From: Escherichia phage 212
Sequence record: PQ765507
Length of the DNA: 64,000 nt
Direction: 5' to 3' (one strand)
In this document: positions 44,476 through 44,860 of the stretch, piece by piece
Numbering within the stretch: position 1 is the first letter of the stretch
Layout of the letters: the number at the start of each line of letters is the position of its first letter
Translations under genes and position numbers: made by a program
The notes under the pieces: generated by a model
Database searches by the model: none
Told to the model about the DNA's origin: nothing
Seen by the model: the letters and a program-made list of their open reading frames with translations, nothing else

Positions 44476-44556
44476 ATGAGCAATTTCCATAATGAACATG
44501 TGATGCAATGGCATCGTCATAATCTGAAATTAACTGGCGTCTTTGGGCGCCCTTGA
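44476..44556 (+). CDS. stp: Stp peptide (26 aa), not in ORF track
   Basis: Hand-translated [26 protein letters not shown]; recalled match to T4 Stp; lies between ndd and ac-like ORF as in T4. Confidence 0.7.
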
Positions 44557-44563
44557 GGAAAAT

Positions 44564-44719
44564 ATGTCTAAATTTATTCATGGTGTAGCTTTTTTCTGTT
44601 GGTCATTTTTATTTGTTGGAACATTAATAACTGGTGAAACTTCAGTATTTCTGCAGTCAACAGCTCAAGGTGTATTAGCGGTTTTATCACTATTTAAATT
44701 ATTGGATAAAAATGATTAA
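44564..44719 (+). CDS. ac: small membrane protein (51 aa), Ac-like by position and size; not in ORF track
   Basis: Hand-translated MSKFIHGVAFFCWSFLFVGTLITGETSVFLQSTAQGVLAVLSLFKLLDKND; GAGGAAAA RBS. Confidence 0.4.
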   Translation: MSKFIHGVAFFCWSFLFVGTLITGETSVFLQSTAQGVLAVLSLFKLLDKND

Positions 44720-44860
44720 GAAAATCCTGGGCTACTCGTTAGCCCTTGCTGCCTTATTGGTAGCGCTGTATTATGGAGTTGTATTTGCATTAGTGCAGGT
44801 TGTGCTTTTTATTTCTGATGCTATAATGGCAGTACATTCGTTAATCTGGTAAGGTGATAT

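Follow-up and report, generated by a model that had tools for sequence, protein, structure and literature searches.

The window, i.e. the whole stretch of 64,000 nt of Escherichia phage 212 (record PQ765507) that was analysed, carries a group of very small ORFs on both sides of the topoisomerase gene 52. The phage is a T4-type Gaprivervirus (VR7/VR25-like), and the 2.4-kb stretch containing these ORFs showed 95-97% identity to VR7, VR20, VR25, SP18, UPEC01 and DCP80. The gene order is ndd-stp-ac-52.1-52-ORF32, arranged as a single early operon with the following genes and features:

43951-43980, plus strand: early (sigma-70-type) promoter candidate GTGTACAA-N17-TATAAT, 5' of ndd, with a 10/12 match in the promoter scan
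44025-44474, plus strand: ndd (nucleoid disruption protein, 149 aa), first gene of the unit; Ndd identity 99% to VR25/VR7 and 60% to T4
44476-44556, plus strand: stp, 26-aa hydrophilic peptide, PF08133
44564-44719, plus strand: ac homologue, 51-aa two-helix membrane protein, phrog_2501
44712-44852, plus strand: 52.1, 46-aa very hydrophobic peptide, PF24129 (DUF7396)
44803-44834, plus strand: candidate middle promoter P52 (MotA box and -10) inside the 52.1 coding sequence
44861-46240, plus strand: gene 52, DNA topoisomerase II medium subunit (459 aa), with an AGGTGA RBS and gp52 homology
46237-46335, plus strand: ORF32, 32-aa single-pass hydrophobic peptide MSFGVEFALLCIFAAIAGVIVGMFIGNKIDKD, phrog_16377
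46334-46361, plus strand: intrinsic terminator from the terminator scan, with a 7-bp GC-rich stem, a TTCG loop and a T-run

In T4 (NC_000866), the order is ndd-stp-ac-52.1-52-motA.1-motA, and each of these genes is annotated there. A preliminary description of the window had proposed four unannotated short genes, three after ndd and one at the gene 52 stop, and had described the ORFs following stp as tightly coupled and equipped with RBSs. All four ORFs were found at exactly these positions and with exactly the proposed translations. The ndd stop codon TAA occupies 44472-44474 and the stp ATG begins at 44476, leaving the spacer of 1 nt that had been claimed. The ATG of the ac-like ORF (44564) is preceded by a GAGG 7 nt upstream, the start of 52.1 overlaps the end of the ac-like ORF by 8 nt (ATGATTAA), and the start of ORF32 overlaps the gene 52 stop by ATGA, i.e. 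by 4 nt, with a GGAGG 5 nt upstream. The RBS motifs, the 1-nt spacer and the two overlaps can be read directly from the DNA. Conservation in related phages, the lack of which had been named there as speaking against the proposal, was clearly observed for all four ORFs.

Since 303 ATG-ORFs of 25-60 aa are present across the six frames of the window, the presence of a short ORF alone is uninformative. The 386-nt gap between ndd and gene 52, however, is tiled to 96% by three ORFs on the same strand, compared to 35 +/- 22% in 5000 first-order Markov random sequences, of which 5/5000 attained the observed value. The ORF arrangement in this gap is non-random. The main support for small genes, obtained at the level of the sequence, comes from the Pfam and PHROG homology, the synteny with T4 and a pN/pS well below 1; the existence of the ORFs, their homology, their synteny and the purifying selection acting on them are direct observations. 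Among 80 loci retrieved via gp52, 52.1 was detectable in most of those with a gp52 identity of at least about 55%, while Stp was confined to T4-, VR7- and JS98-like phages and the Ac slot varied. In those of the 80 loci with a gp52 identity of about 40%, no small ORF of the set could be detected. A scan of 43800-46700 against Rfam with E values up to 1 yielded just two sub-threshold chance hits; the conservation is therefore not explained by a known RNA family.

The 26-aa ORF, which had been assigned to Stp, can be firmly placed in this family. It scored 55.3 bits (E 4.4e-15) on PF08133 (Nuclease_act), for which the curated cut-off is 25 bits, and matched phrog_6763 with an E value of 2e-19. 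T4 Stp (NP_049878) likewise comprises 26 aa and directly follows ndd; 20/26 residues (1-11, 14, 16-18 and 21-25) are identical, and the differences are F12W, Y13H, N15H, T19L, K20T and Q26P. The junction to ndd differs slightly, with a 1-nt overlap in T4 compared to the 1-nt spacer in the window. The peptide is hydrophilic with a GRAVY of -0.87. Comparison with L012 (JS98-like) and L003 (UPEC01) revealed 6 synonymous and 0 non-synonymous differences, and the dN/dS of stp against T4 was 0.08. In VR25, the identical peptide is annotated as PrrC activator.

T4 Stp binds the type Ic restriction complex, relieves restriction by EcoprrI/EcoR124I and unmasks PrrC (PMC3014915, summarising Penner et al. 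1995). By analogy, the Stp of the window would bind the host type Ic restriction complex (EcoprrI, EcoR124I) and block DNA restriction, and in prr+ hosts this block would unmask the latent tRNA-Lys anticodon nuclease PrrC. The cleaved tRNA-Lys would then be mended by the phage polynucleotide kinase and RNA ligase 1. The genes pnk and rnlA were sought within the window, which ends at gene 32 (rnh, 59, 32 and 34 were identified), and both lie outside of it; VR25, which belongs to the same genus, encodes pseT and rnlA. Among the four small genes, Stp is the only one with a demonstrated mechanism, and this only in T4.

An 18-residue stretch of Stp was reported to be almost invariant, and loss-of-function and suppressor mutations cluster at residues 4-14 (PMC3014915). 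Of the N-terminal 18 residues, 15 are identical to T4. Since the exchanges F12W, Y13H and N15H lie within or next to the critical segment, an EcoprrI/PrrC activity of the window Stp is not guaranteed. Accordingly, it has to be considered that this WHRH variant has drifted in its target or specificity and acts no longer on EcoprrI/PrrC like T4 Stp. Besides the three substitutions in a functionally critical segment, this is suggested by the minority status of the allele, which is represented by 39 records at an identity of at least 99% compared to 441 records at 80-90% identity, the range that includes the sampled T4-type Stp alleles. Furthermore, both alleles occur in JS98-like phages (L010 vs L012), which suggests exchange or selection between them. 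On the other hand, residues 1-11 and R14 are identical to T4, and the changes are conservative, being aromatic to aromatic at position 12 and Y to H at position 13. W12 and R14 are also shared by distant 27-aa Stp-like peptides of Skatevirus phages, the window allele is under strict purifying selection without a single non-synonymous difference, and pseT and rnlA are kept in the genus (VR25). Altogether, such a drift is considered unlikely, and an action of Stp as in T4 is the preferred reading.

The Skatevirus peptides are unannotated 27-aa ORFs with the sequence MSNWHNEHIMQWYRRRIK(V/A)ITNS(C/Y)EVQ, which were observed in three siphophages (L086 1201-1284, corresponding to 45463-45546 of Salmonella phage Skate NC_054639; L088 401-484; L089 401-484). 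Two of these ORFs (L086 and L088) have an RBS motif of the GGAG/GGGG type ahead of the start. The Skate peptide passes PF08133 with 34.9 bits, compared to the cut-off of 25, over Stp residues 1-18, i.e. the functional segment, and Stp-like hits of this type were obtained from about 118 Salmonella phage records. In addition, phrog_28068 (unknown function) matches Stp residues 2-18. Judged by these similarities, the siphophage peptides may extend the Stp-like peptides acting against type Ic systems beyond the T4-like phages.

A further observation concerns the junction between ndd and stp. UPEC01 and the two-piece hits DCP80 and TH41 contain about 167 extra nt between these genes, with none at 44474-44476 of the window. 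The extra segment encodes a 57-aa membrane protein, MRHFFTMGYLF...FERLCKMCGIYE (L003 1077-1250, UPEC01 MW233709), the stop of which overlaps the stp start. Members of the 57-aa family are also encoded behind ndd in JS98-like and numerous further T4-like loci. The 52-aa protein QQG30927 of UPEC01 represents a wrong-frame start running into stp, by which stp is mis-called as a fusion.

The 51-aa ORF had been described as Ac-like, and this relation was corroborated by phrog_2501, which is matched by both the window protein (E 2.1e-22) and T4 Ac (E 2.2e-25), as well as by BLASTP against T4 Ac (36% identity, E 1e-8). Since the local copy of Pfam gave nothing significant for the Ac-like protein (DUF4389 with 14 bits, below the cut-off), the homology to T4 Ac is shown via PHROGs and BLASTP. 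The window protein is an allele of the RB32/RB33/RB68 type, with 76-80% identity to these relatives, which are deposited as 'acridine resistance protein', and PF26944 is carried by several relatives that are 76-86% identical. In total, the protein was found in 274 phage records, many of them bearing the acridine resistance name. The dN/dS of ac against T4 was 0.31.

T4 Ac (NP_049877) is also a 51-aa protein with two helices, is located between stp and 52.1 and shows the same 8-nt overlap and the same ending in ...ND directly before the stop codon. The AF2 model of the window protein (10-sequence alignment) comprises helices at residues 2-23 and 26-50 with a pLDDT of 77, comparable to the description of T4 Ac as two helices joined at D26-A27 (bioRxiv 10.1101/2025.06.30.662393). 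Loss of ac leads to acriflavine resistance of phage growth, shown only in T4 and T2, and the same preprint puts forward the hypothesis that T4 Ac blocks AcrAB-TolC efflux (bioRxiv 10.1101/2025.06.30.662393). The protein of the window is accordingly modelled as a helical hairpin of 51 residues in the inner membrane, which by analogy to T4 would cause accumulation of acridines in infected cells, possibly through interference with AcrAB-TolC efflux as currently proposed for T4. When the profiles of Ac and of 52.1 were searched against the complete set of PDB sequences, nothing was retrieved at E values up to 10, so that no sequence link exists to solved small membrane proteins, including efflux-pump accessory peptides.

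Within the genus, different proteins occupy the slot between stp and 52.1. The window carries Ac (phrog_2501), as do T4, UPEC01 and P8, while the closest sequenced relatives VR7 and VR25 contain a 55-aa protein (phrog_9347; L001/L002 1165-1332) at this position. Two JS98-like loci (L012 and L037) comprise both the Ac and the phrog_9347 protein. The latter, named gp281 in VR7 and gp164 in VR25, is also a small membrane protein ending in ...ND. A diverged VR7 gp281 as origin of the Ac-like protein was ruled out by the BLASTP E value of 0.3 and the different PHROG. As far as the alignments go, the slot reflects a non-homologous replacement and not a divergence. The ...ND ending, which occurs in all variants that overlap the 52.1 start, can be explained by the shared ATGATTAA overlap. 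Likewise, the coverage of 91-94% obtained for close relatives results from gp281 filling the slot in VR7 and VR25 instead of Ac.

For gene 52, the gp52 identity is 70% to T4 and 99% to VR20/VR25. Its 5' end is mosaic (window 44861-44915 compared to L007 2501 and T4 165204). In the window, VR20 and VR25, the N-terminus of gp52 is about 17 aa longer (MSDVLSMMSKQFSDSVGS...), while gp52 of L007, which is VR7-like at the slots compared, and of T4 starts at MQLN(K/N)RDLK. In the RefSeq record of VR7, gene 52 is annotated from an internal start.

The 32-aa peptide overlapping the gene 52 stop, also part of the preliminary description, proved to be real and conserved, being identical in VR25, SP18 and UPEC01. 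ORF32 matched phrog_16377 (E 1.7e-9) and occurs in 81 phage records, with an identity of at least 95% in 26 of these. Compared to L005 (VR20), it showed 3 synonymous and 1 non-synonymous differences, and its JS98-type counterparts in two JS98-like loci differed by 9 synonymous and 2 non-synonymous changes. In most of the compared relatives, a hydrophobic ORF overlaps or abuts the gene 52 stop, and the sequences differ. T4 MotA.1 (NP_049874, phrog_3487) is, like ORF32, encoded by a small hydrophobic ORF upstream of motA that overlaps the gene 52 stop by ATGA. A homology to MotA.1 was rejected, since neither tblastn nor PHROGs gave a match (phrog_16377 compared to phrog_3487). To judge from these searches, ORF32 shares its position with T4 motA.1 and is not homologous to it. 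The VR7 ORF278c (phrog_28787), located in the same slot, showed only a weak match (E 0.012). ORF32 would thus encode a single-pass membrane peptide coupled to the termination of gene 52 and occupying the slot of T4 motA.1.

Due to its very short length, ORF32 could also be regarded as an ORF that arose by chance in the spacer separating gene 52 from the terminator. The peptide in the slot behind gene 52 is wholly different between the phage groups (phrog_16377, phrog_28787 and phrog_3487), ORF32 is unannotated in VR25, VR20 and SP18, and short hydrophobic ORFs arise easily, as can be seen from a GRAVY of at least 1.0 in 37 of the 303 small ORFs of the window. These points are outweighed by the GGAGG at the ideal distance together with the ATGA overlap, by silent changes outnumbering replacements in both types (3:1 and 9:2), by the intact state of the ORF32 type in all 81 records, by the coupled hydrophobic ORF at this position in most relatives including T4 motA.1, and by the stop codon abutting the terminator stem. 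A chance origin is therefore regarded as very improbable, and ORF32 is treated as a gene in the following.

The terminator begins inside the ORF32 stop codon and folds with -14.8 kcal/mol (z = -3.0). The transcription unit from ndd to ORF32 would accordingly span from the early promoter at 43951-43980 to the terminator at 46334-46361; both elements are observed as such in the DNA. The motif GTGTACAA-N17-(C/T)ATAAT, counted as GTGTACAA-N17-ATAAT with at most 1 mismatch, occurs in 11 copies in the window, exclusively on the plus strand, compared to an expected number of 0.24. The copies start at the following positions:

1203, 19963, 31889, 32965, 42018, 42358, 43951, 46370, 48609, 62486 and 63609, plus strand: promoter motif copies

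On the basis of this enrichment, the motif probably represents the early promoter set of the phage. The copy following the terminator (46370-46399) is located upstream of a 71-aa ORF and motA (46667-47275). Apart from this locus, further short hydrophobic ORFs on the plus strand were noticed at 5131-5274 (47 aa), 15689-15832 (47 aa) and 43093-43209 (38 aa), with GRAVY values of 1.3-1.6. These may be additional unlisted small membrane genes below the 60-aa cut-off.

For the 46-aa ORF, the preliminary description was right in proposing a real membrane peptide and missed its identity as T4 gp52.1. The peptide scored 71.8 bits on PF24129 (DUF7396) over its full length (1-46), with a curated cut-off of 27 bits, and also matched phrog_3595. 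T4 gp52.1 (NP_049876) comprises 46 aa as well and is encoded directly upstream of gene 52, and the window copy is identical at 40/46 positions (87%). Based on profile, identity and position, the peptide is T4 gp52.1. Against T4, a pS of 0.51 and a pN of 0.067 were determined (pN/pS 0.13, dN/dS 0.08), and the synonymous sites of the flanking genes were saturated. An ORF of 44-46 aa whose end lies 5-14 nt upstream of gene 52 is present in 18 compared loci, the most distant of which have a gp52 identity of about 55%. In the window, the distance from the end of 52.1 to the gene 52 ATG is 8 nt, and the motifs YYG and LFISDVI...S..W are all present. AF2 predicted one uninterrupted helix from residue 2 to 45 (pLDDT 96). 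With 44 residues, this helix exceeds the length of a single membrane pass and would be compatible with a single tilted helix or a hairpin at YYG. gp52.1 would accordingly be a hydrophobic peptide of 46 residues that is translated by coupling to ac.

The family is tiny. An exhaustive profile search for 52.1 retrieved just 9 representatives in 1.84 billion proteins, and a word-indexed search gave 8 clusters, in which all named members belong to T4-like phages. Consequently, no bacterial or distant relative is available to lend a function to DUF7396. In time-resolved proteomics of T4, stp, ac, 52.1 and motA.1 were classified as early at the RNA level, while a protein-level class was assigned to none of them.

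The 3' half of 52.1 additionally contains a candidate middle promoter. It consists of a MotA box TGCTTTT at 44803-44809, a 12-nt spacer and the -10 element TATAAT at 44822-44827, with a predicted +1 A at 44834, i.e. 27 nt before the gene 52 ATG. The criterion applied for middle promoters, a MotA box (a/t)(a/t)(a/t)TGCTT(t/c)A located 12 +/- 1 bp upstream of a TAnnnT -10 element, describes this arrangement, with T instead of A at the last box position as in T4 P52. The MotA-dependent middle promoter P52 of T4 starts at 165227, printed as 65227 in Table 1 of Hinton's review (PMC2988021). This start falls inside T4 52.1 (165209-165349), and the layout comprises TGCTT at 165258-165254 and TATTAT at 165239-165234, with 12 nt between the 7-nt box and the -10 element, followed by the +1 at 165227. 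Positions 44803-44834 of the window align base for base and collinear with T4 P52. The differences are the -10 element, which is TATAAT in the window and TATTAT in T4, and the distance from the predicted +1 to the gene 52 start, which is 27 nt compared to 23 nt in T4. By analogy, gene 52 would additionally be transcribed from P52 in a MotA/AsiA-dependent manner, and the leader of this second transcript would measure about 27 nt.

Codons 31-38 of 52.1 also form the predicted MotA box and -10 element. The codons GTG-CTT-TTY-ATT...GAT (V31 L32 F33 I34 D36) are frozen at the nucleotide level across 10-18 loci. In 10 loci of the 46-aa form, codons 31, 32, 34 and 36 are invariant, whereas the other synonymous sites are near saturation. 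Although 4-6 codons are available for leucine and valine, those of V31 and L32 are fixed. The invariance of residues 31-36 at the codon level can be explained by the embedded P52. As a result, the 3' half of 52.1 looks better conserved as a peptide than it is, since a part of the conservation is promoter constraint.

The possibility that the 52.1 frame is not translated at all, its conservation originating only from the embedded P52 and the gene 52 leader, would agree with the nucleotide-invariant codons 31-34 and 36 coinciding with MotA box and spacer, with the best-conserved stretch in 500+ phage records being residues 29-46, with gp52.1 protein being undetected in T4 proteomics and with the viability of the GT7-type T4 deletion gp52.1-rIIB, but it can be dismissed as extremely improbable, because residues 1-23 in the 5' half, which has no promoter role, match T4 exactly although about 8 silent differences separate the two, Y20-Y21-G22, S43 and W46 are encoded by varying codons without any change of residue, the length of 44-46 aa, the hydrophobicity and the start overlap persist where the MotA box is degenerate (TGCTA in L018, CGCTT in L031), and the overall pS of 0.51 by far exceeds the pN of 0.067. 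On the strength of this pattern of substitutions, 52.1 is a real peptide gene whose 3' half serves two purposes.

Four families were encountered in the ndd-52 interval of T4-like phages, namely the 57-aa family, Ac, the gp281 family and 52.1. A speculative and rather improbable extension would be to regard the interval as a cassette array of tiny coupled membrane peptides, in which only 52.1 is fixed, its VLFISD(V/A)I stretch being co-determined by the MotA box of P52. In such an array, gp52.1 might serve as membrane partner or anchor for the interchangeable Ac or gp281 and jointly with them remodel envelope functions such as efflux, and the promoter-in-codon overlap might be a selected device tying gene 52 expression to retention of the peptide.

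Taken together, we consider it very likely that the region represents a T4-type early/middle unit, in which the small ORFs are genuine, translationally coupled genes with roles derived from T4. All biochemical functions discussed here are transferred from work on T4 and would apply to the phage by analogy. The arrangement as such is already known, since it is the T4 arrangement within a known genus and the four ORFs are catalogued, conserved genes. The preliminary description was thus a correct catch of sub-threshold genes with low scientific surprise. It did not recognise the identity of gp52.1, the position of P52 inside 52.1 and the polymorphic slot between stp and 52.1. Its term 'unannotated' is valid with regard to the 60-aa ORF track on which it was based, while the genes are annotated in T4 and, in a patchy manner, in close relatives. 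The record of VR25 lists stp, the 55-aa gene, 52.1 and gene 52, and the 32-aa ORF is absent from the annotation. In the record of VR7, the 55-aa gene, 52.1 and a 29-aa ORF behind gene 52 are listed, and stp is absent, as it is from the annotation of SP18. UPEC01 contains entries for 'arcridine resistance' (spelling of the record), a 'putative membrane protein' and the identical 32-aa ORF, which is also annotated in MN01. The main value of the analysis therefore lies in annotation quality, as genes of 26-51 aa fall under the common ORF cut-offs and are inconsistently annotated even in RefSeq relatives.

With respect to the biology of these phages, the overlap of P52 and 52.1 calls for caution both in reading conservation and in engineering, since gene 52 expression would be damaged if 52.1 were silently recoded. 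For interactions of phages with antibiotics and efflux, Ac may be relevant. Stp is a textbook example of how a peptide directed against restriction sets off a back-up nuclease of abortive infection, and the Stp allele carried by a phage bears on its host range on prr+ strains or strains with type Ic R-M systems.
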